From Escherichia coli (GTDB lineage: Bacteria; Pseudomonadota; Gammaproteobacteria; Enterobacterales; Enterobacteriaceae), in NCBI RefSeq assembly GCF_009931435.1, contig NZ_CP043414.1: a stretch of 64,000 bases of DNA; one strand, written 5' to 3'. Under the pieces are notes generated by a model that saw only the letters and a list, made by a program, of their open reading frames with translations, was not told the DNA's origin and did not search any database. Shown in pieces: positions 28,396 to 43,135 of this stretch; the first letter of the stretch is position 1; each line of letters begins with the position of its first letter. The position numbers were made by a program, and so were the translations under genes.

Positions 28396-29218
28396 GAGTT
28401 CCCCGCGCCAGCGGGGATAAACCGGCGGTAAAATTGTTGCTACCGTCTGGCCCTTGCGAGTTCCCCGCGCCAGCGGGGATAAACCGACGGTGCAGGATCT
28501 GTAATTCTTGCTCGCGATGAGTTCCCCGCGCCAGCGGGGATAAACCGAGTTATCAGGATTATTCCCGCTCCGCCGCCAGGAGTTCCCCGCGCCAGCGGGG
28601 ATAAACCGTCGTTTTTGTGGTGGGAGTGTGCGGATTGGTAGAGTTCCCCGCGCCAGCGGGGATAAACCGGCTGACATTGTCAGCTATAACCTTACAATGT
28701 GGAGTTCCCCGCGCCAGCGGGGATAAACCGACGTCCCGCTATTTCCTGGACAGTGTGTAGCGGAGTTCCCCGCGCCAGCGGGGATAAACCGGCGGCGCTA
28801 ACGTGATAATCACGATCAATTATGAGTTCCCCGCGCCAGCGGGGATAAACCGCGGGCGTTAACCTTTTTATAGGCATCTTCCTTGAGTTCCCCGCGCCAG
28901 CGGGGATAAACCGGCTTGCAGCAGCTGCGCCAACATCTGAATACGGAGTTCCCCGCGCCAGCGGGGATAAACCGCTTTTTCCCGTGACAAGATCCAGTTA
29001 ACTGTTGAGTTCCCCGCGCCAGCGGGGATAAACCGCATCACTGGACGCCCATTTGAATAACTCACAGGAGTTCCCCGCGCCAGCGGGGATAAACCGATTC
29101 AGCAAATAGCGAATTTCATAAATATGATGTGTTCCCCGCGCCAGCGGGGATAAACCGTACGTTAAACGCCATCTGTCATGGGTCGTCATGTGTTCCCCGC
29201 GCCAGCGGGGATAAACCA
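28396..29218 (+). CRISPR. type I-E CRISPR array: 14 repeats, 13 spacers (32-33 bp)
   Basis: 29-bp repeat GAGTTCCCCGCGCCAGCGGGGATAAACCG at 28396, 28458, 28519, 28580, 28641, 28702, 28763, 28824, 28885, 28946, 29007, 29068; last two repeats (29129, 29190) are GTGTT variants and the final one ends ...AAACCA. Confidence 0.97.
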
Positions 29219-29855: not shown

Positions 29856-31334
29856 TTACGCATTCGACCAGCTCTGGATCGAATCTGCATTCCCCAACTC
29901 ACCATGCATCACTTCATACGATTTTTTCAGGATCACATCAGTGTGTTTGGTTAGGTCTTTGAAAATGCCTTTATTCATCGCGTCGTAGCGTTTGGCATTG
30001 CTCTCAATCGGCATAAAGATATCTTTCACGCGAACCATTTTGTCGACAGCCGTTGCGTAATCCGGGTATAGCCCCAGACCTATCGCTGTATTAATCGCGG
30101 CCCCCAGACTTGCGCAACCGTTAATGGCGTTACGGCGTGCCGGAAGGTTGAACACGTCGGCAAAAATCTGCATAAACAGATCGCTGTTCGAACCACCGCC
30201 AGTAATGATCACATGTTTCGCAAAGTGATTCATTTCATGACACATATTGTCGTAATTGTTCTTCAGCGTCAGCGCCACGCTTTCCAGTATCGAACGATAA
30301 ATCCATGCGTAATCCATGCTGGAATCAAAGCCGATCATAATTCCGCGTTTGTACGGTTCCCACGGATTGGTCAGCCAGTCCAGCACCGTCATCAGACCAT
30401 TACAGCCAGGCGGCACACAACAAGCTTTTTTGTTGAGCAAATCTTCCGGTGAAAGATCCTGCGCCCTGGCATCCTGAATTAACGATTCGCCTAGCATGTC
30501 GCGCAGCCAACTCACCGTCCACATACCTTTTCGAATACCATAACCTTCATACAGCAAGGTTTCCGGAATAGAAGACATGATCGGCCAGTACGCAACCGGA
30601 TCTTTCGGCAGTGCTTTGCCGTTCATCATCAACGCGATGTAGGTACCAAGAGAAATTACCGCCGTTTCATCATCCAGTAACCCTGCTCCCAGTGCTTCTA
30701 CCGGTTTATCACTGGTGGTACAAACAACGGGCAGTCCAACCGGGAAATGTGTCGCCAGCGCGGCTTGTGGTGTGATATGCCCAAGTACAGTGCCCGGCAT
30801 TTGCACATCAAAAAGCATCTGTCGGGGAATATTAAACTTCTCCATTACCGCGGTATCTTCGCTCCATGCCCAGGTCTTATAATCCACCGGCCACTGACCA
30901 AAATAGTTGGCGATATTGTCTTTAAACTCGCCGGTTAAACGGTGTGTCAGATAACCTGAAAAAGAGGTGACATATGCCACATCAGGATTGATGTGCTCGT
31001 AGGGACGTGTTACGCGTGCATCCTGCCAGCTAATCAACGGCGCAGCTGGCGTGCCATCGGCTTTCAATAACGCACGGCAGCAACGGATAGATCCCAGACC
31101 AATGCCGACAATATCTTCTTTATTCCCGGCAAACTGGCTCATCAAATCGTGACCAGCAAAACATAATGATGCCCATAAATCATCGTCAGGATGTTCTGCG
31201 GTATCGGCATCTGGAGTGTGCATCGGTTGTAATAAGCCTTTGCCTTCGCAAACCACGTTACCTTCCAGATCGTACATCACCACTTTTGTGCTCTGACTTC
31301 CGCCATCAATCCCTATGATGTATTTTTTCGACAT
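29856..31334 (-). CDS. ygcE: FGGY-family sugar (pentulose/hexulose-type) kinase
   Basis: 492-aa ORF MSKKYIIGIDGGSQSTKVVMYDLEGNVV... (FGGY N-terminal signature). Confidence 0.88.
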   Translation of the reverse strand: MSKKYIIGIDGGSQSTKVVMYDLEGNVVCEGKGLLQPMHTPDADTAEHPDDDLWASLCFAGHDLMSQFAGNKEDIVGIGLGSIRCCRALLKADGTPAAPLISWQDARVTRPYEHINPDVAYVTSFSGYLTHRLTGEFKDNIANYFGQWPVDYKTWAWSEDTAVMEKFNIPRQMLFDVQMPGTVLGHITPQAALATHFPVGLPVVCTTSDKPVEALGAGLLDDETAVISLGTYIALMMNGKALPKDPVAYWPIMSSIPETLLYEGYGIRKGMWTVSWLRDMLGESLIQDARAQDLSPEDLLNKKACCVPPGCNGLMTVLDWLTNPWEPYKRGIMIGFDSSMDYAWIYRSILESVALTLKNNYDNMCHEMNHFAKHVIITGGGSNSDLFMQIFADVFNLPARRNAINGCASLGAAINTAIGLGLYPDYATAVDKMVRVKDIFMPIESNAKRYDAMNKGIFKDLTKHTDVILKKSYEVMHGELGNADSIQSWSNA

Positions 31335-31360
31335 GATTTTTCTCCTGTAATTTTCCTGGC

Positions 31361-32638
31361 TTACTTGCTGCTAGCCATTGCGGGGGCGCTATCAGCAGTA
31401 CGAATTTTTTGGAACAGCAAAAAGGTAAAGACGATCACCATGGCAAGCGCCGCCATGCCCATCAGCCACATATTGCGGTAGGCTTCTGCTGCGGGCAGGG
31501 TGTCTTGCCAGTGGCCGATAATTGGGTAAACGAAGACATCCGGCAGAAATCCAATCACCGAACAAATACCTACCGTGGTGCCCATAATGTAAGACGGTGT
31601 TCTCGCTTCGCCAGGGCAGGCCCAGTACAGCCCGCGTGAGGCGTAACAGGTGAATCCCAGAAGTAAAATCAGACCAATCCCCATCGCGACCGATTGCGGG
31701 TTAGAGTTCGTGATGAGCAGGGCAGTTAACGCCAGCAGGCCGAGTACGGAAAGGATTTGGATCACGCGGGTAGGGGATTTCACTTTGCTGTAGGTGGTGA
31801 TAATGCCACCAAGTGGGCCGCACAGTGCGCGGAAGATTTTGTTGATCACAATCCCCATGTAGCTCGCCGCCACCAGCGACATGCCGTACATTTCGGTCAG
31901 ATAGTTGGTGGAGTAACTCAGAATGGCGTAGATGGTGAAGACGCCAAAAATCACCATGCTGCAGTACCATGTGGTGCTGATACGCAAAACGGCAAGGATG
32001 TCGCTAAGCTGGAATGACTGTTTTTCTTCGGTGTTGGTATTGCACAGGTTGTTGTTATCGCTAACAAAAAACCAGCACAGAATCCCCAACAAGATGTAAA
32101 CCACACTATAGATGATAATGACCGTTTTCAGGCTGGCGCTGTCATCCGGTGCAAAGCGAGAAAAGACCCACATGGTAAACACCGCCAGCGACATTACACC
32201 GACGCCGCGCAGCCCTTCCATCCAGCCCATAATTTTCCCTTGCTCGCTATGATCGCCAAGCAACGATGCGGCTTTAATCGACACCGACCACAGCATTAAA
32301 ATCGTCGTTATCGCAAAGGCGACCTGAATACAGAGCATTACCCACAGCGGTGGATACGTTGCCATTAACAGACCCAGCAATCCGGTAATGATCATCGCGG
32401 AAGTAATCATTTTGCGATGCGAAAATTTATCGGCAATAACGCCGCTGGGGGCATAAAGAATAATAGCCGCAATACCAAAGGTACTCATTATTAAACCTAT
32501 CTCGGTATTGCTGAATCCCATAAATTTCGCCATGGGAATTTGATAAATATAACGTAAATAAGCCAGATCAAAACTAACGCCGCCACTAAAACTAATTATC
32601 GCTAGGGTTATCCAACGGCGATATGAGTTGTGTTGCAT
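31361..32638 (-). CDS. yqcE: MFS transporter
   Basis: 425-aa ORF MQHNSYRRWITLAIISFSGGVSFDLAYLRYIYQ..., polytopic. Confidence 0.85.
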   Translation of the reverse strand: MQHNSYRRWITLAIISFSGGVSFDLAYLRYIYQIPMAKFMGFSNTEIGLIMSTFGIAAIILYAPSGVIADKFSHRKMITSAMIITGLLGLLMATYPPLWVMLCIQVAFAITTILMLWSVSIKAASLLGDHSEQGKIMGWMEGLRGVGVMSLAVFTMWVFSRFAPDDSASLKTVIIIYSVVYILLGILCWFFVSDNNNLCNTNTEEKQSFQLSDILAVLRISTTWYCSMVIFGVFTIYAILSYSTNYLTEMYGMSLVAASYMGIVINKIFRALCGPLGGIITTYSKVKSPTRVIQILSVLGLLALTALLITNSNPQSVAMGIGLILLLGFTCYASRGLYWACPGEARTPSYIMGTTVGICSVIGFLPDVFVYPIIGHWQDTLPAAEAYRNMWLMGMAALAMVIVFTFLLFQKIRTADSAPAMASSK

Positions 32639-32662
32639 ATCGTATTCCCATTTGTAATAGAC

Positions 32663-32710
32663 AAAAAAAAGAGAAAAGTAAGCCGCCCTTTCAGGTGGAT
32701 TACTTTTCTC
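32663..32710 (-). terminator. intrinsic-terminator-like hairpin in the yqcE 5' leader (minus-strand sense)
   Basis: On the minus strand: 11-bp perfect stem GAGAAAAGTAA / TTACTTTTCTC (plus 32671-32710) followed by U8 (plus 32663-32670), ending about 25 nt upstream of the yqcE ATG. Confidence 0.6.
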
Positions 32711-32885
32711 AGGTCTCTAGTAATTGCAATAAGAAATAACATGGAAAGCAGGGGGGTTGTGTGAGAGTAGTCACGCTTCTGCTTTTTAAAATTATTTGAT
32801 AATACGAATATCACACTGTGATTACGATCACATTAGCGCTTATGCCCTTATGCTAAAAATTATCTCCAGTTACCAGAGATAATGA

Positions 32886-32932
32886 GAAAGGTAACTTCCC
32901 TCTCGCGGGGGAAGTTACCTTTCTTTTTTTTT
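32886..32932 (+). terminator. canonical intrinsic terminator hairpin in the ygcW 5' leader
   Basis: 15-bp perfect stem GAAAGGTAACTTCCC / GGGAAGTTACCTTTC with 8-nt loop, followed by T9 (32924-32932); ends 24 nt before the ygcW ATG. Confidence 0.7.
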
Positions 32933-32956
32933 GCCTTACGGAAATTGGAGCTAACT

Positions 32957-33742
32957 ATGTCAATCGAATCTCTCAATGCGTTCTCAATGGATCTTTTCTC
33001 CCTGAAAGGTAAAACCGCAATTGTTACCGGCGGGAATAGCGGTTTAGGCCAGGCATTTGCCATGGCGCTGGCAAAAGCAGGCGCAAATATCTTTATTCCA
33101 AGTTTCGTTAAAGATAATGGCGAAACAAAGGAAATGATTGAAAAACAGGGTGTTGAGGTGGACTTCATGCAGGTGGATATCACCGCAGAAGGCGCGCCGC
33201 AGAAGATAATTACCGCCTGTTGTGAACGTTTCGGCACCGTCGATATTCTGGTTAACAATGCCGGTATATGTAAGCTGAATAAGGTGCTGGATTTCGGTCG
33301 TGCCGACTGGGACCCGATGATTGACGTGAACCTGACCGCCGCATTCGAGTTAAGCTATGAAGCGGCAAAAATTATGATCCCGCAGAAAAGCGGTAAAATC
33401 ATTAATATCTGTTCATTATTCTCTTACTTAGGTGGTCAATGGTCACCTGCTTATTCTGCCACTAAACACGCCCTTGCCGGATTTACCAAAGCCTATTGCG
33501 ATGAATTAGGTCAATATAATATTCAGGTAAATGGTATTGCCCCAGGATATTACGCTACCGATATCACCCTGGCGACACGCAGTAATCCAGAAACCAATCA
33601 GCGCGTTCTTGATCATATTCCAGCAAACCGTTGGGGCGATACTCAGGATTTAATGGGCGCAGCCATATTTCTCGCAAGTCCGGCATCGAATTATGTCAAC
33701 GGGCATTTATTAGTGGTTGATGGCGGTTATTTAGTGCGCTAA
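32957..33742 (+). CDS. ygcW: short-chain dehydrogenase/reductase (KduD/FabG-like)
   Basis: ORF track starts 32882; the ATG at 32957 with GGAG RBS gives MSIESLNAFSMDLFSLKGKTAIVTGGNSGLGQA... (TGxxxGxG NAD-binding motif), 261 aa. Confidence 0.88.
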   Translation: MSIESLNAFSMDLFSLKGKTAIVTGGNSGLGQAFAMALAKAGANIFIPSFVKDNGETKEMIEKQGVEVDFMQVDITAEGAPQKIITACCERFGTVDILVNNAGICKLNKVLDFGRADWDPMIDVNLTAAFELSYEAAKIMIPQKSGKIINICSLFSYLGGQWSPAYSATKHALAGFTKAYCDELGQYNIQVNGIAPGYYATDITLATRSNPETNQRVLDHIPANRWGDTQDLMGAAIFLASPASNYVNGHLLVVDGGYLVR

Positions 33743-33811
33743 TCCATAACGGTGGTTTCTGATTTCTTTTATTAATGACTATTCCATTTTTATTATCAGG
33801 AAGGAATTACT

Positions 33812-35266
33812 ATGTCTTTATCTCGCGCAGCGATTGTCGACCAGCTAAAGGAAATTGTTGGTGCAGATCGCGTAATTACCGATGAAACGGTATTGAAGAA
33901 AAACAGTATTGATCGTTTTCGTAAATTTCCGGATATTCATGGTATTTATACTTTGCCTATTCCGGCAGCGGTCGTAAAACTCGGTTCCACTGAGCAAGTG
34001 TCCCGTGTGCTGAATTTTATGAATGCACACAAAATTAACGGCGTACCACGTACCGGTGCTTCCGCTACCGAAGGCGGGCTGGAAACCGTTGTGGAAAACT
34101 CGGTGGTGCTTGATGGCTCTGCAATGAATCAAATCATTAATATTGATATAGAGAATATGCAGGCGACGGCGCAATGTGGCGTTCCGCTGGAAGTGCTGGA
34201 AAACGCGTTGCGTGAAAAAGGTTACACCACGGGGCACTCTCCGCAGTCAAAACCGTTGGCACAGATGGGGGGACTGGTGGCGACCCGTAGTATCGGGCAG
34301 TTCTCCACACTCTACGGCGCAATCGAGGATATGGTCGTTGGCCTGGAAGCAGTACTGGCTGATGGCACCGTGACACGCATTAAAAACGTGCCACGACGCG
34401 CGGCGGGTCCGGACATTCGTCACATCATCATCGGCAACGAAGGCGCATTGTGCTATATCACTGAAGTTACTGTGAAAATCTTTAAATTCACCCCGGAAAA
34501 CAACCTCTTCTACGGCTATATCCTGGAAGACATGAAAACCGGCTTCAACATCCTGCGTGAAATCATGGTGGAAGGATATCGTCCGTCGATCGCTCGTTTG
34601 TATGACGCTGAAGATGGCACCCAACACTTCACCCATTTTGCCGACGGAAAATGCGTGCTGATCTTTATGGCTGAAGGTAACCCTCGCATTGCGAAGGCGA
34701 CGGGCGAAGGGATTGCTGAAATCGTGGCACGTTACCCGCAATGCCAGCGCGTGGACAGCAAGCTGATCGAAACCTGGTTTAACAACCTGAACTGGGGACC
34801 GGATAAAGTGGCTGCCGAACGTGTGCAGATCCTCAAAACCGGCAACATGGGCTTTACCACCGAAGTCTCCGGCTGCTGGAGCTGCATCCACGAAATCTAC
34901 GAAAGTGTTATTAACCGTATTCGTACCGAGTTCCCACATGCCGACGACATCACTATGCTGGGCGGTCACTCTTCCCACAGCTATCAGAACGGCACCAACA
35001 TGTATTTTGTCTACGACTACAACGTTGTTGACTGTAAGCCGGAAGAGGAAATCGACAAATACCACAATCCGCTCAACAAAATCATCTGCGAAGAAACCAT
35101 TCGCCTCGGCGGTTCGATGGTACACCATCACGGTATCGGTAAACATCGTGTTCACTGGAGCAAACTGGAACACGGCAGCGCGTGGGCGTTGCTGGAAGGG
35201 CTGAAAAAGCAGTTCGATCCTAACGGCATTATGAATACGGGTACTATCTATCCGATTGAAAAATAA
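33812..35266 (+). CDS. ygcU: FAD-linked oxidase (alkyl-DHAP synthase / D-lactate dehydrogenase-like)
   Basis: 484-aa ORF MSLSRAAIVDQLKEIVGADRVITDETVLKKNSIDRF..., FAD-binding PCMH-type domain. Confidence 0.88.
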   Translation: MSLSRAAIVDQLKEIVGADRVITDETVLKKNSIDRFRKFPDIHGIYTLPIPAAVVKLGSTEQVSRVLNFMNAHKINGVPRTGASATEGGLETVVENSVVLDGSAMNQIINIDIENMQATAQCGVPLEVLENALREKGYTTGHSPQSKPLAQMGGLVATRSIGQFSTLYGAIEDMVVGLEAVLADGTVTRIKNVPRRAAGPDIRHIIIGNEGALCYITEVTVKIFKFTPENNLFYGYILEDMKTGFNILREIMVEGYRPSIARLYDAEDGTQHFTHFADGKCVLIFMAEGNPRIAKATGEGIAEIVARYPQCQRVDSKLIETWFNNLNWGPDKVAAERVQILKTGNMGFTTEVSGCWSCIHEIYESVINRIRTEFPHADDITMLGGHSSHSYQNGTNMYFVYDYNVVDCKPEEEIDKYHNPLNKIICEETIRLGGSMVHHHGIGKHRVHWSKLEHGSAWALLEGLKKQFDPNGIMNTGTIYPIEK

Positions 35267-35359
35267 TGTGTCAGGTAGCGTTTCGCGATGACGGGACGTT
35301 GCCTTTTCGGCTTCTCAACCGGGAAGCCGTTCTTATTACCGGACAATGAAGGGGTAAAG

Positions 35360-36697
35360 ATGAACACTTCACCGGTGCGAATGGATGATTTACCACTTAA
35401 CCGTTTTCACTGTCGAATTGCTGCGCTGACTTTCGGCGCACACCTGACCGACGGTTATGTTCTCGGCGTCATTGGTTACGCCATAATTCAGCTTACTCCA
35501 GCCATGCAACTGACGCCGTTTATGGCGGGAATGATCGGCGGCTCGGCGCTACTTGGCCTGTTTATCGGCAGCCTGGTTTTGGGCTGGATCTCCGACCATA
35601 TCGGGCGGCAAAAAATCTTCACCTTCAGCTTTATGCTGATTACACTCGCCTCGTTCCTGCAATTTTTTGCCACCACGCCAGAGCATCTTATTGGACTGCG
35701 CATTTTGATCGGCATTGGGCTGGGAGGCGATTACTCAGTAGGCCACACCTTGCTGGCTGAATTTTCTCCGCGCCGCCATCGCGGTATTTTGCTGGGCGCA
35801 TTCAGCGTGGTGTGGACCGTAGGCTATGTGCTGGCAAGTATTGCCGGACATCACTTTATTAGCGAAAGCCCCGAAGCCTGGCGATGGTTACTTGCATCGG
35901 CGGCATTTCCTGCCCTGTTGATTACGTTGTTACGTTGGGGAACGCCAGAATCGCCACGCTGGCTACTGCGCCAGGGGCGTTTTGCAGAAGCTCACGCTAT
36001 CGTGCATCGCTATTTTGGTCCCCATGTTTTACTGGGCGATGAAGTGGCAACGGCGACCCATAAACACATCAAAACCTTGTTCTCTTCGCGCTACTGGCGG
36101 CGCACGGCGTTTAACAGTGTCTTCTTTGTCTGCCTCGTAATCCCATGGTTTGTAATTTACACCTGGCTGCCAACTATCGCCCAGACTATTGGACTGGAAG
36201 ATGCGCTGACTGCCAGCCTGCTGCTTAACGCGTTATTAATTGTGGGTGCGCTGCTGGGATTATTTCTGACGCACCTGCTGGCACATCGCAAATTTTTACT
36301 TGGCAGTTTTTTGTTGCTGGCGGCAACGCTGGTAGTGATGGCCTGTTTGCCTTCTGGCTGTTCATTAACGCTGCTGCTTTTTGTTCTCTTCAGTACCACC
36401 ATTTCGGCAGTCAGTAATCTGGTGGGCATTTTGCCTGCGGAAAGTTTTCCTACTGACATTCGCTCGCTGGGCGTCGGTTTTGCCACCGCCATGAGTCGGT
36501 TGGGCGCGGCGGTAAGTACTGGCCTGCTGCCGTGGGTGCTGGCACAGTGGGGAATGCAAGTCACCTTATTGCTCCTGGCGGCAGTGTTGTTGGTTGGTTT
36601 TGTTGTGACCTGGCTATGGGCGCCAGAAACCAAAGCACTCCCGCTGGTGGCGGCGGGAAATGTAGGAGGTGTGAATGAACATTCTGTTAGCGTTTAA
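35360..36697 (+). CDS. ygcS: MFS transporter (sugar/acid porter type)
   Basis: ORF track starts 35288; the ATG at 35360 with GAAGGGG RBS gives MNTSPVRMDDLPLNRFHCRIAALTFGAH..., polytopic. Confidence 0.85.
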   Translation: MNTSPVRMDDLPLNRFHCRIAALTFGAHLTDGYVLGVIGYAIIQLTPAMQLTPFMAGMIGGSALLGLFIGSLVLGWISDHIGRQKIFTFSFMLITLASFLQFFATTPEHLIGLRILIGIGLGGDYSVGHTLLAEFSPRRHRGILLGAFSVVWTVGYVLASIAGHHFISESPEAWRWLLASAAFPALLITLLRWGTPESPRWLLRQGRFAEAHAIVHRYFGPHVLLGDEVATATHKHIKTLFSSRYWRRTAFNSVFFVCLVIPWFVIYTWLPTIAQTIGLEDALTASLLLNALLIVGALLGLFLTHLLAHRKFLLGSFLLLAATLVVMACLPSGCSLTLLLFVLFSTTISAVSNLVGILPAESFPTDIRSLGVGFATAMSRLGAAVSTGLLPWVLAQWGMQVTLLLLAAVLLVGFVVTWLWAPETKALPLVAAGNVGGVNEHSVSV

Positions 36698-37454
36698 AGC
36701 CGAACCGGATGCCGGAATGCTGGCGGAAAAAGAGTGGCAGGCGGCGGCTCAGGGTAATAGCGGACCGGATGTTTCGCTGCTGCGAAGTTTACTCGGTGCT
36801 GATGAACAGGCCGCTGCCGCGCTTCTGTTAGCGCAGAGAAAAAACGGTACGCCGATGTCTTTAACCGCGTTGAGCATGGGGGATGAACGGGCGTTGCACT
36901 GGCTGCGCTATCTCATGGCTCTTGGGTTTGAGGAAGCTGTATTGCTGGAGACGGCGGCAGATCTGCGCTTTGCGCCGGAATTTGTCGCTCGCCATATTGC
37001 CGAATGGCAGCGCCAGAATCCGCTGGATCTGATCATTACTGGCTGCCAGAGCAGCGAAGGGCAGAACGGGCAAACGCCATTTTTGCTGGCGGAAATGCTG
37101 ACCTGGCCCTGTTTTACCCAGGTGGAGCGTTTTACTCTCGACGCACCGTTTATCTCGCTCGAACAGCGTACTGAACATGGATTACGCTGTTGTCGGGTTC
37201 GCTTGCCTGCGGTGATTGCCGTGCGCCAGTGTGGCGAGGTGGCCTTGCCAGTACCGGGAATGCGCCAGCGAATGGCTGCGGGGAAAGCTGAAATTATCCG
37301 CAAAACTGTTACTGCTGAATCGTCAGCGATGCAGTGCCGGCAACTGGAAAGGCCAGAGCAACGACGCGGTGCAACGCTTCTTGATGGGCAAACGGTAGCA
37401 GAAAAAGCGCAAAAGCTATGGCAGGACTATTTACGCCAAAGGATGCAGCCATGA
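36675..37454 (+). CDS. ygcR: electron-transfer flavoprotein beta-subunit-like (FixA-type)
   Basis: 259-aa ORF MNILLAFKAEPDAGMLAEKEWQAAAQG...; GGAGGTG RBS; overlaps the ygcS 3' end. Confidence 0.85.
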   Translation: MNILLAFKAEPDAGMLAEKEWQAAAQGNSGPDVSLLRSLLGADEQAAAALLLAQRKNGTPMSLTALSMGDERALHWLRYLMALGFEEAVLLETAADLRFAPEFVARHIAEWQRQNPLDLIITGCQSSEGQNGQTPFLLAEMLTWPCFTQVERFTLDAPFISLEQRTEHGLRCCRVRLPAVIAVRQCGEVALPVPGMRQRMAAGKAEIIRKTVTAESSAMQCRQLERPEQRRGATLLDGQTVAEKAQKLWQDYLRQRMQP

Positions 37455-38311
37455 ATATCGCCATTGTGACAATAAATCAGGAACATGCCGCAATAGCGGG
37501 CTGGCTGGCGGAGCAGGATTTCAGCGGCAGCACATTAACGCACTGGCAAATCGAGCCGCAGCCGATGGTCGCGGAACAGGTGCTGGATGCGCTGGTAGAA
37601 CAGTGGCAGCGAACGCCTGCGGACGTTGTTCTCTTTCCGCCGGGAACGTTTGGCGATGAACTGGCTACCCGCCTGTCCTGGCGTTTACATGGTGCCAGTA
37701 TATGCCAGGTGACTTCATTAAATATTCCAACCGGAAGCGTACGCAAATCCCAGTGGGGAAATGCGCTAACGGCGACGCTGCAAACAGAAAAACGCCCGCT
37801 ATGCCTTTCCCTTGCCCGCCAGGCGGGAGCAGTGAAAAATGCCACGTTGCCCTCTGGTATGCAGCAACTGAACATTGTCCCCGGCGCGCTTCCCGACTGG
37901 CTGGTTAGCACAGAGGATCTGAAAAATGTTACCCACGACCCATTAGCTGAGGCCAGACGGGTGCTGGTGGTGGGGCAGGGCGGAGAGGCAGATAACCAGG
38001 AAATCGCTATGCTGGCAGAAAAGCTGGGAGCCGAAGCGGGCTACAGTCGGGCGCGAGTAATGAACGGTGGCGTTGATGCCGAAAAAGTGATTGGTATTTC
38101 CGGACATCTGCTGGCACCTGAGGTGTGTATTGTTGTTGGCGCTTCCGGCGCAGCAGCGTTAATGGCGGGCGTCCGCAATAGCAAGTTTGTGGTGGCGATT
38201 AATCATGACGCCAGCGCGGCGGTATTTTCACAGGCAGATGTTGGCGTGGTAGATGACTGGAAAGCGGTGCTGGAGGCACTGGTGACAACCATTCACGCAG
38301 ATTGCCAATAA
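37451..38311 (+). CDS. ygcQ: electron-transfer flavoprotein alpha-subunit-like (FixB-type)
   Basis: ATG at 37451 gives MNIAIVTINQEHAAIAGWLAEQ...; ATGA overlap with the ygcR stop. Confidence 0.85.
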   Translation: MNIAIVTINQEHAAIAGWLAEQDFSGSTLTHWQIEPQPMVAEQVLDALVEQWQRTPADVVLFPPGTFGDELATRLSWRLHGASICQVTSLNIPTGSVRKSQWGNALTATLQTEKRPLCLSLARQAGAVKNATLPSGMQQLNIVPGALPDWLVSTEDLKNVTHDPLAEARRVLVVGQGGEADNQEIAMLAEKLGAEAGYSRARVMNGGVDAEKVIGISGHLLAPEVCIVVGASGAAALMAGVRNSKFVVAINHDASAAVFSQADVGVVDDWKAVLEALVTTIHADCQ

Positions 38312-38315
38312 CGTG

Positions 38316-38428
38316 CTGCCGGATGATCCTGTCTACGGTTCTGGGCTGGGGACTGTAGGCCTGATAAGACGCGTCAAGCGTCGTATCAGGCGCTGAATGC
38401 CGGATTTGGCATGTGGCCTACAAATCAG
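38316..38428. repeat. REP/BIME palindromic units in the convergent ygcQ-ygcP intergenic region
   Basis: GTAGGCCTGATAAGACGCGTCAAGCGTCGTATCAGGCGC plus the flanking TGCCGGAT...GGCCTACA. Confidence 0.7.
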
Positions 38429-38456
38429 ACAAATTCAACTCGTTACGAGTATCCCG

Positions 38457-39032
38457 TCAAAGCAATTTTTTCGCTAACGTCCAGACCCCGGTATTCGTGG
38501 TGGAAAGCGCCACGACACCGGCGTTAATCGCATTACGCGCATCTTCTTCATCGCACACCAGCCCGCCAGCAATCAGCGGCTGGTGGATTTTCTCCGTTAC
38601 CCAGCCCAGCACTTTAGGCATACAGCCTGGCAGAATTTCAATACAATCAGGATTCGATTGCGCAACCTGCTTATCAATGTTGTGAAAAGAAATCGAGTCG
38701 ACAATAAACAAGCGATGAATACAGAAAAAGCCTTCCGCTCTCGCCGCTTTTAGCATTGACGCTTTGGTACTGATAATGCCGTCCGCCTCGGTCACCAGTT
38801 TCAGAAACTGAATTACTACTTCTTTATTTGATGCGCCTTCCAGCAAATCGACATGAATAAAGGCATATTTCCCGGCACTTTTAATCTTTTTGACGATATG
38901 ACTGATGGTGCAGATATTGCCGTATAACACGGAAATAAACTGGCATTCAGAATCGATTGCCAACTGCAGGCTGGCATTATCTTTAACGGCAGCAATCACC
39001 GGATTCTGGCGGAGCAGGTGTAAGAGGGGCAT
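38457..39032 (-). CDS. ygcP: GlpP-family (glycerol-3-phosphate-responsive-type) transcription antiterminator
   Basis: 191-aa ORF MPLLHLLRQNPVIAAVKDNASLQLAIDSECQFISVLYGNI... Confidence 0.85.
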   Translation of the reverse strand: MPLLHLLRQNPVIAAVKDNASLQLAIDSECQFISVLYGNICTISHIVKKIKSAGKYAFIHVDLLEGASNKEVVIQFLKLVTEADGIISTKASMLKAARAEGFFCIHRLFIVDSISFHNIDKQVAQSNPDCIEILPGCMPKVLGWVTEKIHQPLIAGGLVCDEEDARNAINAGVVALSTTNTGVWTLAKKLL

Positions 39033-39048
39033 AAATTATCCTTATTAT

Positions 39049-39309
39049 TTATCCAAAGCGGTAGGTGATGCCGAATCCGGAAGGCGGATAGCGCCACTGT
39101 TGTAGGTTTTTTTCATCACACAGTAAACGGCAGGTGCCACACTCCAGGCAGCCGCGATAATCAACGCGTAAGTCGCCTTCCGGCGTGAGCGAAAAAAGAC
39201 CAGCCGGACAAGCGTTAATCAACCGTTCTGCCGTCTGGCGCTCAACGGAGTCTGCCGGAACAATATGTGGCGCATCAGCAGCGCGCCAGAGATTACGGGC
39301 TACAGACAT
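39049..39309 (-). CDS. ygcO: ferredoxin-like protein (FixX-type)
   Basis: ORF track 39049..39345; the ATG at 39309 gives MSVARNLWRAADAPHIVPADS... with Cys motif CLECGTCRLLC; 86 aa. Confidence 0.8.
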   Translation of the reverse strand: MSVARNLWRAADAPHIVPADSVERQTAERLINACPAGLFSLTPEGDLRVDYRGCLECGTCRLLCDEKNLQQWRYPPSGFGITYRFG

Positions 39310-40571
39310 CGAATACTCCTGACAACATCGCCCGCCAGATGCCACAGGCCATGACGACGTAAATGACGCCAGAGCAACTGACGCAGCGGCGGAACAGGTT
39401 TATCACCCTGATCCCATAAATCACGGGAAATATCCTGCATTAACACAGGCCACTTACGGTACCATCCAGGGCGTTGCAAAAGCGCCGGAACATGCTGATA
39501 GCGCTGTAGAACATCCCACAGCAGGCTGCGCTCTACGTTGTAATGATAAAGCGGAAACAGATTTTGCGGCTCGCGGTGCTGGCAGGCGCTTATCAGCGTT
39601 TGTGCCGCCGCCTGTGCGCCAGCCAGCGCCATATCCATGCCGCGCACGGAAATTCCGGTATTGACGCAACTGCGCAACGTATCGCCCACCAGCAGCCAGC
39701 CGTTACCGGCGTATTGCACCGGCATACTGTGCAAGCCACCTTCTGGCACCAGATGCGCACCATACTCCAGTGATTCCGTGTTTTTGATAAGCGGGCGCAC
39801 TGCCGGATGCGTTTTAAAGCGAGCCAGCAGCTCGCTTGCCGGAACACGACTTTGCGTAAGTGAAGAGAGCGGGCAAACAATCCCTAACGAGAGCGTTTGT
39901 TGATTAGTATAAAGAAATGCGCCGCCGGGTAAGTCATCACAGATTCCGCCGCTGAACAGCAACGCTGCGCCTTCGTTATTCTCCAGATGAAAACGTTCTT
40001 CAATAGCGGATGTTTCCAGTGAAAGAACTTCTTTGATCCCCAACGCCATCGCTTCGCCAGCAGGACGAGTCACTAACCCGTGACGCTCAGCCAGGACGCT
40101 GTTGGCACCTTCTGCCAGCGCCACATAACGGGCGCGGAGAATATCGTCACCGCAAATGACACCACACACCCTGCCGTTTTCTTCATACAGCGCATCTACC
40201 GTCGCACCAGGGATGCATTCGACACCTTCTTTTTCGGCTTCGGCAACCAGCCACGGATCGAACCGTGCACGTAATACGCTCCAGGATTCACCGCCGGGCT
40301 GTAAGCTGGAAAACGTCGTTGCGCCATCCGGCGTTAGCAGAGAAAGACTTTCGTGAGTGATGCGTCGTTCAAGAGGCGCGGTCAGGTGAAACTGAGGGAG
40401 GAGTTCCGCGAGCGCATGGGTGTATAAACGCCCGCCGGAAAGGTTTTTACTGCCGGGAATTTCAGCGCGTTCCAGTAACAGAACGGATAAACCTGCCCGC
40501 GCGCAGCGTAAAGCACAAGCGGTGCCTGCTATACCCGCACCAATAATAATAATGTCGCAGTCGTCTTCCAT
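39300..40571 (-). CDS. ygcN: FAD-dependent oxidoreductase (FixC / ETF-quinone oxidoreductase-like)
   Basis: The ATG at 40571 gives MEDDCDIIIIGAGIAGTACALRCARAGLSVLLLER (Rossmann GxGxxG immediately N-terminal); the ORF track's longer GTG start at 40601 lacks support. Confidence 0.83.
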   Translation of the reverse strand: MEDDCDIIIIGAGIAGTACALRCARAGLSVLLLERAEIPGSKNLSGGRLYTHALAELLPQFHLTAPLERRITHESLSLLTPDGATTFSSLQPGGESWSVLRARFDPWLVAEAEKEGVECIPGATVDALYEENGRVCGVICGDDILRARYVALAEGANSVLAERHGLVTRPAGEAMALGIKEVLSLETSAIEERFHLENNEGAALLFSGGICDDLPGGAFLYTNQQTLSLGIVCPLSSLTQSRVPASELLARFKTHPAVRPLIKNTESLEYGAHLVPEGGLHSMPVQYAGNGWLLVGDTLRSCVNTGISVRGMDMALAGAQAAAQTLISACQHREPQNLFPLYHYNVERSLLWDVLQRYQHVPALLQRPGWYRKWPVLMQDISRDLWDQGDKPVPPLRQLLWRHLRRHGLWHLAGDVVRSIRCL

Positions 40572-40648
40572 GTCATGCCCCAGATATCCAGAGCGCAACA
40601 CCCTAACATAGCGTTACTTAAGGGAAATTGACCGCCGACACACTCTTA

Positions 40649-41329: not shown

Positions 41330-43135
41330 ATGACGACACAGGTCCCACCTTCCGCGTTGCTTCCGTTGAACCCGGAGCAACTGGCACGCCTTCAGGCGGC
41401 CACGACCGATTTAACTCCCACCCAGCTTGCCTGGGTTTCTGGCTATTTCTGGGGCGTGCTCAACCAACAGCCTGCTGCGCTTACAGCGACGCCAGCGCCC
41501 GCCCCCGCCGCAGAAATGCCGGGTATAACTATTATCTCCGCTTCGCAAACCGGCAATGCGCGCCGGGTTGCTGAAACATTACGCGATGATTTATTAGCGG
41601 CAAAACTGAACGTTAAGCTGGTGAACGCGGGCGACTATAAATTCAAACAAATCGCCAGCGAAAAACTGCTCATCGTGGTGACGTCAACGCAAGGTGAAGG
41701 GGAACCGCCGGAGGAGGCCGTCGCGCTGCATAAGTTCCTGTTCTCCAAAAAAGCGCCGAAGCTGGAAAACACCGCGTTTGCTGTGTTTAGTCTCGGCGAT
41801 AGCTCTTATGAATTTTTCTGCCAGTCCGGGAAAGATTTTGACAGCAAGCTGGCGGAACTGGGCGGTGAACGCCTGCTCGACCGTGTCGATGCCGACGTTG
41901 AATACCAGGCTGCTGCCATCGAGTGGCGCGCCCGCGTGGTTGATGTTCTGAAGTCCCGTACGCCTGTCGCGGCACCTTCGCAATCCGTCGCTACTGGCGC
42001 GGTAAATGAAATCCACACCAGCCCGTACAGCAAAGACGCGCCGCTGGTGGCGAGCCTCTCTGTTAACCAGAAAATTACCGGGCGTAACTCTGAAAAAGAC
42101 GTTCGCCATATCGAAATTGACTTAGGTGACTCGGGCCTGCGTTACCAGCCGGGTGACGCGCTGGGCGTCTGGTATCAGAACGATCCGGCACTGGTGAAAG
42201 AACTTGTCGAACTGCTGTGGCTGAAAGGCGATGAACCTGTCACCGTCGAGGGCAAAACGTTACCTCTGAACGAGGCCCTACAGTGGCACTTCGAACTGAC
42301 CGTCAACACCGCCAACATCGTTGAGAACTACGCCACGCTTACCCGCAGTGAAACGCTGCTGCCGCTGGTGGGCGATAAAGCGAAGTTACAGCATTACGCC
42401 GCGACGACGCCGATTGTCGATATGGTGCGTTTCTCTCCGGCACAGCTTGACGCTGAAGCCCTCATTAACTTGCTGCGCCCGCTGACGCCGCGCCTGTATT
42501 CCATCGCCTCCTCGCAGGCGGAAGTCGAGAACGAAGTACACGTCACCGTTGGTGTCGTTCGTTATGACATTGAAGGCCGCGCCCGTGCCGGTGGTGCCTC
42601 TAGTTTCCTCGCGGATCGTGTGGAAGAAGAGGGCGAAGTCCGCGTCTTTATCGAACATAACGACAACTTCCGTCTGCCAGCCAACCCGGAAACGCCGGTG
42701 ATTATGATTGGTCCAGGCACCGGCATCGCGCCGTTCCGCGCCTTTATGCAGCAACGTGCTGCTGACGAAGCGCCGGGTAAAAACTGGCTGTTCTTTGGCA
42801 ACCCACACTTTACGGAAGATTTCCTCTATCAGGTGGAGTGGCAGCGCTACGTCAAAGAGGGCGTGCTGACACGTATCGATCTTGCCTGGTCGCGCGATCA
42901 AAAAGAAAAAATTTACGTACAAGACAAACTGCGCGAACAGGGCGCAGAGCTGTGGCGCTGGATCAATGACGGAGCCCACATTTATGTCTGCGGCGACGCT
43001 AATCGCATGGCGAAAGACGTTGAACAGGCACTTCTGGAAGTGATTGCCGAATTTGGTGGCATGGACACCGAAGCGGCGGATGAATTTTTAAGTGAGCTGC
43101 GCGTAGAGCGCCGTTATCAGCGAGATGTCTACTAA
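41330..43135 (+). CDS. cysJ: sulfite reductase (NADPH) flavoprotein alpha subunit
   Basis: 601-aa [33 protein letters not shown]... with flavodoxin and FNR-like domains. Confidence 0.96.

Follow-up and report, generated by a model that had tools for sequence, protein, structure and literature searches.

The closest described counterpart of the control proposed here is the glp regulon of Bacillus subtilis, in which the antiterminator protein GlpP acts with glycerol-3-phosphate at the leaders of glpD, glpFK and glpTQ, where the promoter is followed, within the 5′ UTR, by a protein-binding site and an intrinsic terminator, in that order; the regulon's own kinase makes the phosphorylated inducer, and catabolite control is layered above (PMC9604022). 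BglG/LicT-type RAT antitermination, in which a weak hairpin overlapping the 5′ arm of the terminator is stabilised by a ligand-controlled protein, offers an analogy of mechanism only, since protein family and RNA motif are unrelated. For the electron-transfer genes, the nearest relatives are the carnitine-linked fixABCX and the ydiQRST genes of E. coli and the diazotroph FixABCX, all of which combine ETF beta and alpha subunits with a FixC-like flavoprotein and a FixX-like ferredoxin, the E. coli fix module being tied to a quaternary-amine pathway (PMC9329746). The LctBCD lactate dehydrogenase/ETF complex of Acetobacterium woodii similarly has a VAO-family flavoenzyme gene beside its own ETF pair. 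Alkyl-DHAP synthase (ADPS/AGPS, EC 2.5.1.26; mechanism reviewed in PMC3509576), a VAO-fold flavoenzyme, is eukaryotic, peroxisomal, biosynthetic and redox-neutral, and has no redox partner.

The ygc locus of E. coli shares features with each of these systems. It resembles the glp regulon in its PF04309 antiterminator protein and in architecture, and differs in gene content: the ygc-type regulon comprises a short-chain dehydrogenase (SDR), an ADPS-like flavoenzyme, an FGGY kinase, MFS, BCCT or OpuC transporters and an MttB-like gene, rather than glpD, glpFK and glpTQ. It also occurs in Proteobacteria, for which, to our knowledge, GlpP-type control has not previously been described. In contrast to fixABCX and ydiQRST, the ygc module is divided, with ygcRQ in the ygcU operon and ygcNO in that of ygcP; all four of its proteins score under the curated cut-offs, and many lineages that keep the core dispense with it. 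Anaerobic ygc-type clusters carry just such a pairing, a separate LctD-type enzyme (FAD2) together with an ETF that has a ferredoxin domain in its alpha subunit; however, this second module is missing from the window (the whole stretch of 64,000 nucleotides analysed), and the YgcU active site is not LctD-like.

Organization of the ygc Locus

The region 29856–40571, flanked by CRISPR repeats (28458–28915) on one side and queD on the other, holds ten genes in two divergent operons and a convergent third according to the ORF listing and to the genes annotated on an E. coli chromosome of 98.3% identity, as the first-pass annotation had described. None of the ten reading frames is interrupted, and 5060 of 5426 complete E. 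coli genomes contain at least 80% of the region. The minus-strand operon consists of yqcE (31361–32638; MFS transporter), its leader-controlled first gene, followed by ygcE (29856–31334; FGGY-family kinase). The divergent plus-strand operon comprises ygcW (32957–33742; KduD-like SDR), ygcU (33812–35266; ADPS-like FAD enzyme), ygcS (35288–36697; sugar-porter/NiaP-like MFS transporter), ygcR (36675–37454; divergent ETF beta subunit) and ygcQ (37451–38311; ETF alpha subunit). Convergent to it on the minus strand are ygcN (39300–40571; FixC-like FAD oxidoreductase, a putative ETF:quinone oxidoreductase), which starts 77 nt past the queD stop codon, ygcO (39049–39309; FixX-like ferredoxin) and ygcP (38457–39032; GlpP-family, or G3P_antiterm, RNA-binding antiterminator).

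The gene overlaps claimed earlier are present at ygcS/ygcR (23 nt), ygcR/ygcQ (4 nt, ATGA) and ygcO/ygcN (10 nt), and the family assignments (FGGY kinase, two MFS proteins, SDR, FAD flavoprotein, ETF pair, FixC-like, FixX-like and G3P_antiterm) were confirmed. Because every NCBIfam match lies under its curated cut-off, no protein of the cluster is a named equivalog. The longest ORF for ygcW (32882–33742) was rejected in favour of the ATG at 32957 as the true start, because it begins within the leader terminator. The convergent ygcQ/ygcP gap holds inverted repeats forming a REP-type palindromic element (38354–38431, unstranded) with a weak match to Rfam naRNA4 (31 bits, under the gathering score).

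CRP Sites, Leader RNA and YgcP

Within the 64 kb window, the only two matches to the CRP consensus (≤1 mismatch) are the putative sites TGTGAGAGTAGTCACG (32760–32775, unstranded), whose centre lies 41.5 nt before the start of the yqcE leader, and TGTGATTACGATCACA (32817–32832, unstranded), which has perfect half-sites and its centre 42.5 nt before the start of the ygcW leader. Each of 40 Enterobacterales loci has a near-consensus CRP site 41.5–44.5 nt ahead of a leader start, and a counterpart of TGTGAGAGTAGTCACG at the equivalent position on the yqcE side is kept across Enterobacterales. Read from sequence and comparison, each of the two divergent operons opens with a CRP site and, after it, a conserved leader.

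The window contains two copies of this leader as scored by covariance model R1, one before ygcW (32867–32935, plus strand; 77.2 bits, E 2.7e-14) and one before yqcE (32661–32726, minus strand; 57.8 bits, E 3.6e-10), and the model finds no such element upstream of ygcN. The ygcW leader terminator (32884–32933) has a 19-bp stem followed by U9 (−34.2 kcal/mol, z −6.9). Seven bases of the terminator 5′ arm can alternatively pair with an upstream AGUUACY to form a weak hairpin with a conserved purine-rich loop (AGAG...GAGAAA); in the ygcW leader this overlapping antiterminator hairpin is AGUUACC/GGUAACU (−6.7 kcal/mol alone). The yqcE leader likewise combines an intrinsic terminator with an overlapping alternative hairpin (fold energy −22.3 kcal/mol, z −4.4) and ends 22 nt upstream of the yqcE ATG. 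The antiterminator helix is 97% paired with compensatory GC↔AU and UA↔CG changes, and the terminator is 88.6% paired with an AU↔GC change at a column common to the antiterminator; both sets of changes represent few independent events among related sequences.

The leader has no match in Rfam 15 and is a previously undescribed RNA, new in this analysis. Searches with nhmmer located 110 copies in 58 of 84 related loci, preceding ygcW, yqcE (directly 5′ of it in 39 loci), BCCT genes, ygcU and other MFS genes, with one before an MttB-like gene and one with no labelled gene nearby; metagenome contigs supplied further copies ahead of MttB and OpuC operons. YgcP belongs to PF04309 (E 2.5e-62), although its match to Listeria GlpP (PDB 3KTS; E 3.6e-29) reaches just 105 bits. 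Leader and YgcP occur together in 55 loci, are both absent from 12 and are discordant in four (Fisher 6e-10, kinship of the loci ignored); three loci initially scored as leader-less later gave covariance-model matches of 25–40 bits. We propose YgcP as the regulator of both leaders.

YgcU Is Related to Alkyl-DHAP Synthase

YgcU has the FAD_binding_4/FAD-oxidase_C domains (Pfam PF01565 and PF02913), and its top NCBIfam match is GlcD. Its closest solved relative in a PDB profile search is nevertheless ADPS (195 bits), well ahead of glycolate oxidase (129) and LctD (93), and ADPS is also the top Foldseek neighbour of its predicted structure, a low-confidence model (pLDDT 62). Invariant Arg262, Tyr398 and His438–440 of YgcU align with the catalytic Arg419, Tyr578 and His615–617 of ADPS. 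At the position where LctD and FAD2 have EHG(I/V)G, YgcU reads HHHGIGK, and the Glu-His metal motif known from D-lactate/glycolate dehydrogenases is missing from it. At the level of sequence, therefore, YgcU resembles the ether-lipid-making flavoenzyme of animals and not a generic oxidase, and the earlier description of an "FAD-linked oxidase" acting on a sugar, polyol or hydroxy-acid mis-specified it.

YgcU is ∼170 residues shorter than ADPS, with ∼160 N-terminal ADPS residues missing, and probably acts on a small, polar molecule instead of a C16 chain. It is encoded in a catabolic operon, in which its gene often directly precedes ETF genes; because ADPS is redox-neutral and needs no ETF, the chemistry of YgcU must differ from that of ADPS somewhere.

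A Conserved Core with Accessory Electron-Transfer Genes

Comparison of loci indicates that the conserved core is smaller than the ten genes. YgcW, YgcU and YgcE are present in every complete locus, usually with YgcP, and the SDR, YgcU and FGGY kinase recur in at least four phyla at 43–85% identity (YgcW, 66–85% across phyla; YgcU, 64–76% outside Enterobacterales; YgcE, 43–57% to orthologues in Bacillota, Desulfobacterota and Actinomycetota). YgcW is nearest in profile searches to KduD and gluconate-5-dehydrogenases (KduD model PRK06935, 348 bits against a cut-off of 369), enzymes that oxidise the carbon adjoining a terminal CH2OH. For YgcE the best NCBIfam matches are XylB (142 bits) and LsrK (137 bits), all under cut-off, and in the PDB the autoinducer-2 kinase LsrK ranks first, ahead of glycerol kinases; xylulokinase and LsrK are at least as near to YgcE as glycerol kinase is, and its substrate could therefore exceed three carbons. 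The co-travel of kinase, SDR, flavoprotein and YgcP-type antiterminator across phyla, together with the same leader element and CRP site on both divergent operons, bears out the view of the cluster as a coherent, co-regulated catabolic unit.

The ETF and FixC/FixX-like genes, judged by their distribution, are accessory to this core. YgcR matches ETF beta at 42 bits and is 28–37% identical to the ETF beta adjoining ygcU in anaerobes; YgcQ matches ETF alpha at 78 bits and is 26–45% identical to its counterparts elsewhere. FixX-like YgcO (82 bits against a cut-off of 166) and FixC-like YgcN (379 and 360 bits, both under cut-off) are confined to Enterobacterales among the loci compared. An ETF pair beside the core is missing in several Enterobacterales, halophilic Bacilli, actinomycetes and SAR324, and in the aerobes sampled. 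The FixABCX-type module noted at first reading is thus present as genes, although it lies outside the conserved core.

Transporters and Candidate Substrates

YqcE is 58% identical to a leader-preceded MFS protein of Photobacterium and weakly resembles galactonate-type anion symporters. YgcS, found only in Enterobacterales among the loci compared, is reported to share 26.5% identity with NiaP, a niacin transporter, and NMN production rises when YgcS is over-expressed (PMC8601175). Outside Enterobacterales, the regulon transporters are of the BCCT or OpuC betaine type, and the regulon includes a gene of the MttB (trimethylamine-methyltransferase-like) family; the BCCT, OpuC and MttB-like genes carry the leader upstream. 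An aspartase-family lyase, a betaine-aldehyde-dehydrogenase-like enzyme and a Zn-dependent alcohol dehydrogenase adjoin the core in Alkalihalobacillus and Neobacillus, and the lyase alone does so in Desulfopila; this triad is core-adjacent in only two or three genomes. The betaine-type transporters and the MttB-family gene suggest that the solute is a quaternary-ammonium or betaine-type compound and not an ordinary sugar. Because Enterobacterales instead use MFS transporters and have neither lyase triad nor MttB gene, the betaine argument applies to this window only indirectly, by way of other lineages.

The cluster probably breaks down a glycerol-linked compound, and this compound may be a betaine. 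The leading and most specific candidate is glyceryl-O-trimethylhomoserine, the backbone left when ether-linked betaine lipids are deacylated. The first-pass remark that no substrate had been assigned holds in the full-text literature searched, where we found no assignment for the ygc cluster; a 2022 review labels YgcRQ "of unknown function" (PMC9329746).

Proposed Mechanism and Alternatives

In the scheme that we put forward, and to which we give an about even chance as a whole, the cluster is a catabolic regulon under CRP and leader/YgcP control, in which YgcU would cleave the C1-X bond of a 1-substituted DHAP. Two divergent class-II-type CRP promoters would drive yqcE-ygcE and ygcWUSRQ, each transcript starting with a leader predicted to fold into a strong intrinsic terminator; by analogy with glycerol-3-phosphate-loaded GlpP opening the Bacillus glp operons, YgcP loaded with a phosphorylated pathway intermediate would bind and stabilise the antiterminator hairpin. 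YqcE (BCCT or OpuC in other phyla) would import a 1-substituted glycerol with an X-CH2-CHOH-CH2OH end. Oxidation of the secondary alcohol by YgcW and phosphorylation of the primary alcohol by YgcE, in either order, would yield X-CH2-CO-CH2-OPO3, a 1-substituted DHAP. YgcU would then follow the ADPS mechanism, with its tyrosine base taking the C1 proton and the carbanion bonding flavin N5, so that the C1-X bond breaks to give a triose phosphate for glycolysis and free XH, which YgcS may export. Where present, YgcRQ and the FixC/FixX-like YgcN/YgcO would carry flavin electrons to quinone, which would make the reaction a net oxidative cleavage or serve flavin re-oxidation under anoxia.

A conventional dehydrogenation, in which a sugar, polyol or hydroxy-acid is taken up, phosphorylated and oxidised by a GlcD/D-lactate-dehydrogenase-type YgcU through ETF to quinone with no bond cleavage, would accord with the superfamily and GlcD match of YgcU, with the symporter and KduD likenesses of YqcE and YgcW, and with ETF genes that directly adjoin ygcU in most anaerobes and Escherichia and whose presence in the loci compared follows an anaerobic lifestyle, as a dehydrogenase would predict. 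We consider it unlikely given the higher ADPS score and the HHHGIGK motif of YgcU, the many lineages with no ETF beside the core, the betaine-type transporters elsewhere and the FAD2 enzyme that anaerobe clusters already possess. YgcU with ETF might instead be an analogue of glycerol-3-phosphate dehydrogenase, converting a substituted glycerol-3-phosphate to the DHAP level, with the C1 substituent kept or removed by another enzyme, and the cluster a glp-regulon paralogue for a glycerol derivative. Regulator, kinase, flavoprotein dehydrogenase and transporter would then mirror GlpP, GlpK, GlpD and GlpF/T, and an ETF to FixC-like to quinone route would parallel the established route of GlpD/GlpABC to quinone; yet the universally conserved YgcW would be left with no role, and simple hydride transfer does not explain the kept proton-abstracting tyrosine and HHH loop of ADPS, making this reading rather improbable.

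Cleavage by YgcU also has to be set against two readings to which we give very little credence. That YgcU is a true biosynthetic alkyl-DHAP synthase making bacterial ether lipids agrees with its catalytic residues and with the name "alkyldihydroxyacetonephosphate synthase" given to homologues in several database sources, but we know of no ether-lipid synthesis in E. coli, the N-terminal ADPS residues are missing, and ygcU has transporter and kinase genes and CRP-dependent promoters around it and is co-regulated with BCCT, OpuC and MttB-like genes, in a context with no acyl-DHAP-forming enzyme or acyl/alkyl-DHAP reductase. Equally hard to credit is the reading that the cluster is decaying and silent in Escherichia, a remnant that no longer has a function there. 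In its favour are the absence of a phenotype in the literature searched and a genomic SELEX study (PMC3946193) that lists the ygcW/yqcE spacer as a site of H-NS; against it stand the wide presence of the region in complete E. coli genomes, the ten intact reading frames, and leader and CRP sites kept across Enterobacterales with compensatory changes.

Organization and Conservation of the ygc Cluster

All ten open reading frames of the ygc cluster are intact at 29856–40571, in the order and orientation described by the first-pass annotation, and the overlapping junctions on which it had based operon structure are present at ygcS/ygcR (23 nt), ygcR/ygcQ (4 nt), and ygcO/ygcN (10 nt). PGAP labels the genes as ygcE and yqcE, then ygcW, ygcU, ygcS, ygcR, and ygcQ, then ygcP, ygcO, and ygcN. 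Family searches bore out all ten proposed family labels, though every NCBIfam score lies below its curated cutoff, and hence no ygc protein is a named equivalog. At least 80% of the cluster is present in 5060 of 5426 complete E. coli genomes (about 93%, by megablast). Across 29856–40571 and the cysJI region (41330–44847), the best identity to a complete E. coli genome is 98.3%, with most at 90–95%; identity of the window to Escherichia sp. MOD1-EC7003 is 93.7% and to E. albertii 92.6%. The window is not typical of E. coli and probably comes from a divergent Escherichia lineage. The cluster is flanked by an orphan CRISPR array on one side and queD on the other. Two CRISPR stretches lie about 150 bp apart upstream of ygcE (28458–28608 and 28763–28915), each with 2.5 repeat-spacer units of the common repeat GAGTTCCCCGCGCCAGCGGGGATAAACCG.

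Because the ygc genes have long been annotated, the bare observation of the cluster is not new, and it ranks among the larger remaining gene blocks of unknown function in E. coli. The full-text literature searched, including searches on ADPS (alkyl-DHAP synthase) combined with ETF and FGGY, on betaine-lipid and homoserine-betaine catabolism, and on GlpP leaders, gives no functional assignment for any ygc gene, in agreement with the earlier statement that no substrate had been assigned. Published observations are that D-serine induces ygcU weakly (1.69-fold), that ygcU deletion has no phenotype, that YgcS affects NMN production (PMC8601175), and that YgcRQ is described in a review as of “unknown function” (PMC9329746); one match to “ygcO” was discarded as a misprint for ycgO. 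The same searches returned no report of an active site of ADPS type in a catabolic context, of a pan-phylum core with transporter swapping, or of a leader under YgcP and CRP control.

A Predicted Catabolic Core Shared across Phyla with Differing Transporters

YgcU is 64–76% identical to proteins of Bacillota, Desulfobacterota, SAR324, Actinomycetota, and Vibrionaceae, and a scan of species-representative genomes found relatives encoded in at least 549 species-level genomes. Mapping of the ten window proteins onto 80 loci fetched from such genomes placed YgcU in every locus (66–84% identity to the window protein), the short-chain dehydrogenase/reductase (SDR) YgcW and the FGGY kinase YgcE in every complete locus (66–85% and 43–57%, respectively), and YgcP in most complete loci (42–75%). 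The ETF pair YgcR/YgcQ occurs in most anaerobes and most Enterobacterales (26–45%), while YgcS (60–66%) and YgcN/YgcO (50–60%, Limnobaculum) are confined to Enterobacterales. Among the loci examined, the core lacks an adjacent ETF pair in Erwinia, Pantoea, Izhakiella, Ewingella, and the Serratia proteamaculans group, in Halobacillus, Virgibacillus, Thalassobacillus, and Alkalihalobacillus, and in Saccharopolyspora, Prauserella, and SAR324.

The transporter beside the core differs by phylum: a YqcE-type MFS protein in Gammaproteobacteria and a few others, a BCCT transporter in 15 non-enteric loci, and an OpuC-type ABC system in 8–12 loci. The BCCT proteins do not reach the NCBIfam cutoffs for carriers of glycine betaine, choline, or carnitine. 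About nine loci encode an MttB-family methyltransferase whose gene has no in-frame stop. On gene content, the constant members of the regulon are a transporter, the SDR, the FGGY kinase, and the ADPS-like flavoenzyme YgcU.

The first-pass annotation proposed a FixABCX-type module. All four members are recognizable, with scores below the curated cutoffs (ETF beta 42, ETF alpha 78, FixC-like 360–379, and FixX-like 82 bits). In contrast to the contiguous fixABCX operon, the four ygc genes are split over two operons on opposite strands, ygcRQ closing the plus-strand ygcW operon and ygcNO heading the minus-strand ygcNOP operon. Anaerobic loci add FAD2, a second flavoenzyme of LctD type, and a second ETF whose alpha subunit carries a ferredoxin domain, which hints at a D-2-hydroxy acid as intermediate or product in these versions. 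Examples are at 13241–14782 of comparison locus L002 and 13187–16591 of L004; in several loci, L004 among them, FAD2 comes with its own ETF pair of this kind.

YgcU Has an ADPS-like Active Site

Precomputed annotation of proteins 99–100% identical to YgcU assigns the domains PF01565 and PF02913 (a VAO/PCMH-type FAD-binding domain and a FAD-oxidase_C cap). The nearest solved structures are the peroxisomal and Dictyostelium alkyl-DHAP synthases (E 3e-40), and a profile built from 13 YgcU orthologues, searched against PDB sequences, scored 195 bits with ADPS, 129 bits with glycolate oxidase, and 93 bits with LctD; glycolate oxidase, LctD, and the D-lactate dehydrogenases all fall far below ADPS in the PDB search. 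In the profile alignment (guinea-pig numbering, anchored by the mutant entries 4bc7, R419H, and 4bca, Y578F), the invariant YgcU residues Arg262, Tyr398, and His438–His440 correspond to ADPS Arg419, Tyr578, and His615–617, for which a catalytic requirement has been established by mutation. A structure model of YgcU from a shallow 13-sequence alignment was poor (pLDDT 62), too poor to judge the C16 hydrophobic channel; that a Foldseek search with this model placed 26 ADPS chains on top (TM about 0.49) gives weak support for the likeness.

The D-2-hydroxyacid dehydrogenases carry a Glu-His pair (EHGIG/EHGVG) near the C terminus as a metal ligand. YgcU, which the first-pass annotation had read as a FAD-linked oxidase in the oxidation of a sugar, polyol, or hydroxy acid, has the motif VHHHGIGK, with HHHGIG at the aligned position where LctD has GEHGIG and FAD2 has SEHGVGK. 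Because it departs from the Glu-His motif, YgcU falls, as judged from its sequence, outside the D-2-hydroxyacid dehydrogenases (GlcD/LctD/D-LDH type).

ADPS removes the C1 proton of acyl-DHAP, bonds the carbanion to flavin N5, expels the C1 substituent, and adds a new one; it requires oxidized flavin, with no net redox change (PMC3509576). ADPS has no electron-transfer partner, whereas in the window, as in most anaerobes, ETF genes lie downstream of ygcU. YgcU (484 residues) aligns with ADPS only from about ADPS residue 158–180, so that the N-terminal ~160 residues are missing, and ADPS residues 430–521 are unaligned. Features particular to ADPS are an extra domain and a gatekeeping helix, besides its C16 hydrophobic channel. 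YgcU cannot be classed as a true ADPS because this N-terminal region is missing, because its context is catabolic, and because it has an ETF partner.

A Conserved Terminator/Antiterminator Leader Precedes ygcW and yqcE

Twenty-four bases upstream of the ygcW ATG, a 19-bp stem is followed by nine U (32884–32933). The terminator folds at −34.2 kcal/mol (z −6.9) and the antiterminator alone at −6.7 kcal/mol, the latter being the signature of a hairpin that needs a protein to win. The ATG annotated at 32957 is the credible ygcW start; the longest open reading frame (from 32882) opens within the terminator. The same element lies upstream of ygcW orthologues from Enterobacterales through Halobacillus, with the consensus AGUUACY-AGAG-N(4-6)-GAGAAARGUAACUUCC-loop-GGAAG-UUGCUUUUCUC-U(7-9), in which seven bases of the terminator 5′ arm (RGUAACU) can pair instead with the upstream AGUUACY. 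Covariation was counted on a 53-sequence alignment, collected with a pattern that did not include the upstream arm. The 7-bp antiterminator helix was paired in 97% of cells (slid controls 17–55%), with GC↔AU (45/8) and UA↔CG (38/10) exchanges, and the 17-bp terminator helix in 88.6% (slid controls 55–68%), with an AU↔GC exchange (41/11) in a column shared with the antiterminator. These exchanges constitute good evidence for both alternative helices, short of overwhelming since they are few in number and come from related sequences.

A covariance model of the leader found two copies in the window, at 32867–32935 on the plus strand before ygcW (77 bits) and at 32726–32661 on the minus strand before yqcE (58 bits), each ending 22 nt before its ATG; it found no others in the window and none before ygcN. 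The yqcE leader has A and U where the ygcW leader has a G-C pair, an independent compensatory change inside one genome. An Rfam 15 scan of the whole cluster returned no family at the leaders. Across 84 loci, 58 contain a total of 110 copies, for which the nearest downstream gene is ygcW (52), yqcE (39), a BCCT gene (8), ygcU (7), another MFS gene (2), or an MttB-like gene (1), with no labeled gene for the remaining copy. A scan of metagenomes with the leader pattern mostly re-found Escherichia loci; further copies on metagenome contigs precede OpuC operons or operons of MttB, PanB-like, and OpuC genes.

Exact matches to the pattern occur in a set of metagenome contigs with small open reading frames (L086, L100, L103, L110, L111, L136, L144, L165, L166, L169, L170, and L182), which are possibly phage-like DNA; a recurring 182-residue reading frame adjoins, and nhmmer gives only about 15 bits. 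The approximately dozen partial matches at ~15 bits in such contigs were set aside as probably chance or partial.

YgcP is the likely protein partner of the leader. It matches PF04309 (G3P_antiterm) over residues 12–184 (E 2.5e-62) and PDB entry 3KTS (E 3.6e-29). By locus, leader and YgcP are both present in 55, both absent in 12, and discordant in 4 (Fisher 6e-10, a value that ignores phylogeny); three loci initially scored as lacking the leader have covariance-model matches of 40, 38, and 25 bits, and the model found no leader in the operons of the YgcP-less loci tested. In the Bacillus GlpP paradigm a promoter is followed by a GlpP site and a 5′-UTR terminator, with glycerol-3-phosphate as the ligand (PMC9604022). 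The ygc system is similar in its promoter, conserved site, 5′-UTR intrinsic terminator, and PF04309 regulator. However, GlpP targets glpD, glpFK, and glpTQ, whereas the ygc leader precedes ygcW, yqcE, BCCT, ygcU, MFS, MttB-like, and OpuC genes, with no glp gene downstream of a leader among the loci and metagenome contigs examined. The leader would represent a previously undescribed protein-dependent RNA switch common to Proteobacteria, Bacillota, and Actinomycetota and, since we know of no GlpP-family antiterminator target described before in Proteobacteria, the first such target there.

Only two matches to the CRP consensus with at most one mismatch (TGTGA-N6-TCACA type) occur in the whole 64 kb window, both within the 140 bp between the leaders (32817–32832 and 32760–32775), their centers 42.5 and 41.5 nt from the leader starts; a putative site with the same spacing is present in 40 of 40 Enterobacterales loci. 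In class II CRP-dependent promoters the site is centered near −41.5 relative to the transcription start. The arrangement indicates a pair of predicted CRP-type promoters, with a terminator/antiterminator leader behind each. Genomic SELEX in E. coli K-12 found the ygcW/yqcE spacer (window 32639–32956) bound by RpoD holoenzyme in both directions, reported divergent sigma-70 promoters there, and marked the spacer “HNS” (PMC3946193), which could account for silence of the cluster in laboratory culture.

Proposed Mechanism and Candidate Substrates

The cluster would operate much as a glp regulon does, but with an ADPS-like enzyme at its center and a Fix-type ETF chain as an optional addition. The SDR and kinase would convert X-CH2-CHOH-CH2OH to X-CH2-CO-CH2-OPO3, where X is the C1 substituent of the proposed substrate; the nearest relatives of YgcW oxidize the carbon adjoining a terminal CH2OH. 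YgcU would then break the C1–X bond on flavin N5 to give a triose phosphate and XH, and YgcP loaded with the kinase product would stabilize the antiterminator. The ETF may serve a net oxidative cleavage or keep the flavin oxidized without O2, and in Enterobacterales YgcN/YgcO may hand the electrons to quinone; its presence in anaerobes and absence in aerobes make us lean toward one of these two roles, which we hold on a par. The analysis thus yields a testable RNA switch, a chemistry for YgcU in which a bond at C1 of a DHAP-like substrate would be broken on the flavin, and a short list of candidate substrates. If YgcU does cleave ether or C–N bonds, a rare flavin mechanism would have gained a new catabolic role.

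That betaine-type transporters and an MttB homologue share the leader suggests that the solute is a quaternary ammonium compound or a zwitterion. Glycerophosphocholine is disfavored because ordinary phosphodiesterases already deal with it, and DHPS because the transporter type is mismatched. Long-chain alkylglycerols clash with the BCCT/OpuC transporters and with the missing ADPS N-terminal region. 3-Amino-1,2-propanediol and (2,3-dihydroxypropyl)trimethylammonium are chemically possible, but we know of no natural source for either and disfavor both on that ground. In DGTS betaine lipids, homoserine betaine is ether-bonded to glycerol, and an ADPS-type enzyme is what opening such an ether needs. 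The regulon might accordingly degrade glyceryl-O-N,N,N-trimethylhomoserine, the water-soluble backbone of deacylated ether-linked betaine lipids, a specific reading that draws on few genomes, none from Enterobacterales, and that we regard as improbable.

Under this betaine-lipid reading, YgcW and YgcE would turn glyceryl-O-N,N,N-trimethylhomoserine into an alkyl-DHAP analogue, and YgcU, as the first catabolic ADPS-type flavin “etherase,” would release DHAP and homoserine betaine. The latter, an alcohol, would fit a three-gene module of an aspartase-family lyase, a betaine-aldehyde-dehydrogenase-like enzyme, and a Zn alcohol dehydrogenase, in that two oxidations would lead to a 2-substituted succinate and then fumarate. 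In Alkalihalobacillus and Neobacillus niacini this module is the immediate neighbor of the SDR/YgcU/FGGY/BCCT module, and in Metabacillus and Priestia it occurs complete, on its own with a BCCT gene; an aspartase-family lyase is also beside the core in Desulfopila. In Bacilli, the Zn alcohol dehydrogenase and aldehyde dehydrogenase would oxidize homoserine betaine to trimethyl-aspartate, which the lyase would split into fumarate and trimethylamine; in anaerobes the leader-controlled MttB homologue might demethylate it; and Enterobacterales might export it, perhaps by YgcS. The betaine-lipid reading fits the occurrence of the cluster in saline, algal, soil, and gut settings. A betaine-lipid backbone or other quaternary amine as substrate would define an unrecognized route through which carbon from algal, fungal, and bacterial membranes passes, possibly with trimethylamine formation in guts and saline sediments.

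The Bacillaceae lyase/aldehyde dehydrogenase/Zn alcohol dehydrogenase/BCCT module is conserved but apparently uncharacterized (L186 5024–15969, L188 5221–15880, L187 6374–13042, and L003 612–7643). A sigma-54 activator and an OpuAC-like binding protein are encoded alongside it in L186, L188, and L003; the first two of these loci also have genes for a sensor kinase, an enolase-superfamily enzyme, and an Fe alcohol dehydrogenase.

Other Features within the Cluster

A GC-rich hairpin at 35308–35329 (CGGCTTCTCAACCGGGAAGCCG, region 35267–35360) lies just 3′ of the ygcU stop, within the annotated N-terminal extension of ygcS; Pluralibacter and an Enterobacter species have a hairpin and T-run at the same place. 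The true ygcS start may therefore be a later one (MNTSPV...), preceded by an internal attenuator. The convergent ygcQ–ygcP gap is occupied by a REP-type palindromic element (38354–38431; GCCTGATAAGACGC / GCGTCGTATCAGGC, flanks TGTAGGCC / GGCCTACA) with a sub-threshold match to Rfam naRNA4 (31 bits). Between the queD stop and the ygcN start are 77 nt (40572–40648) in which neither a terminator-like site nor a leader element was found, and ygcNOP, including the regulator gene, may therefore be transcribed by read-through from queD.
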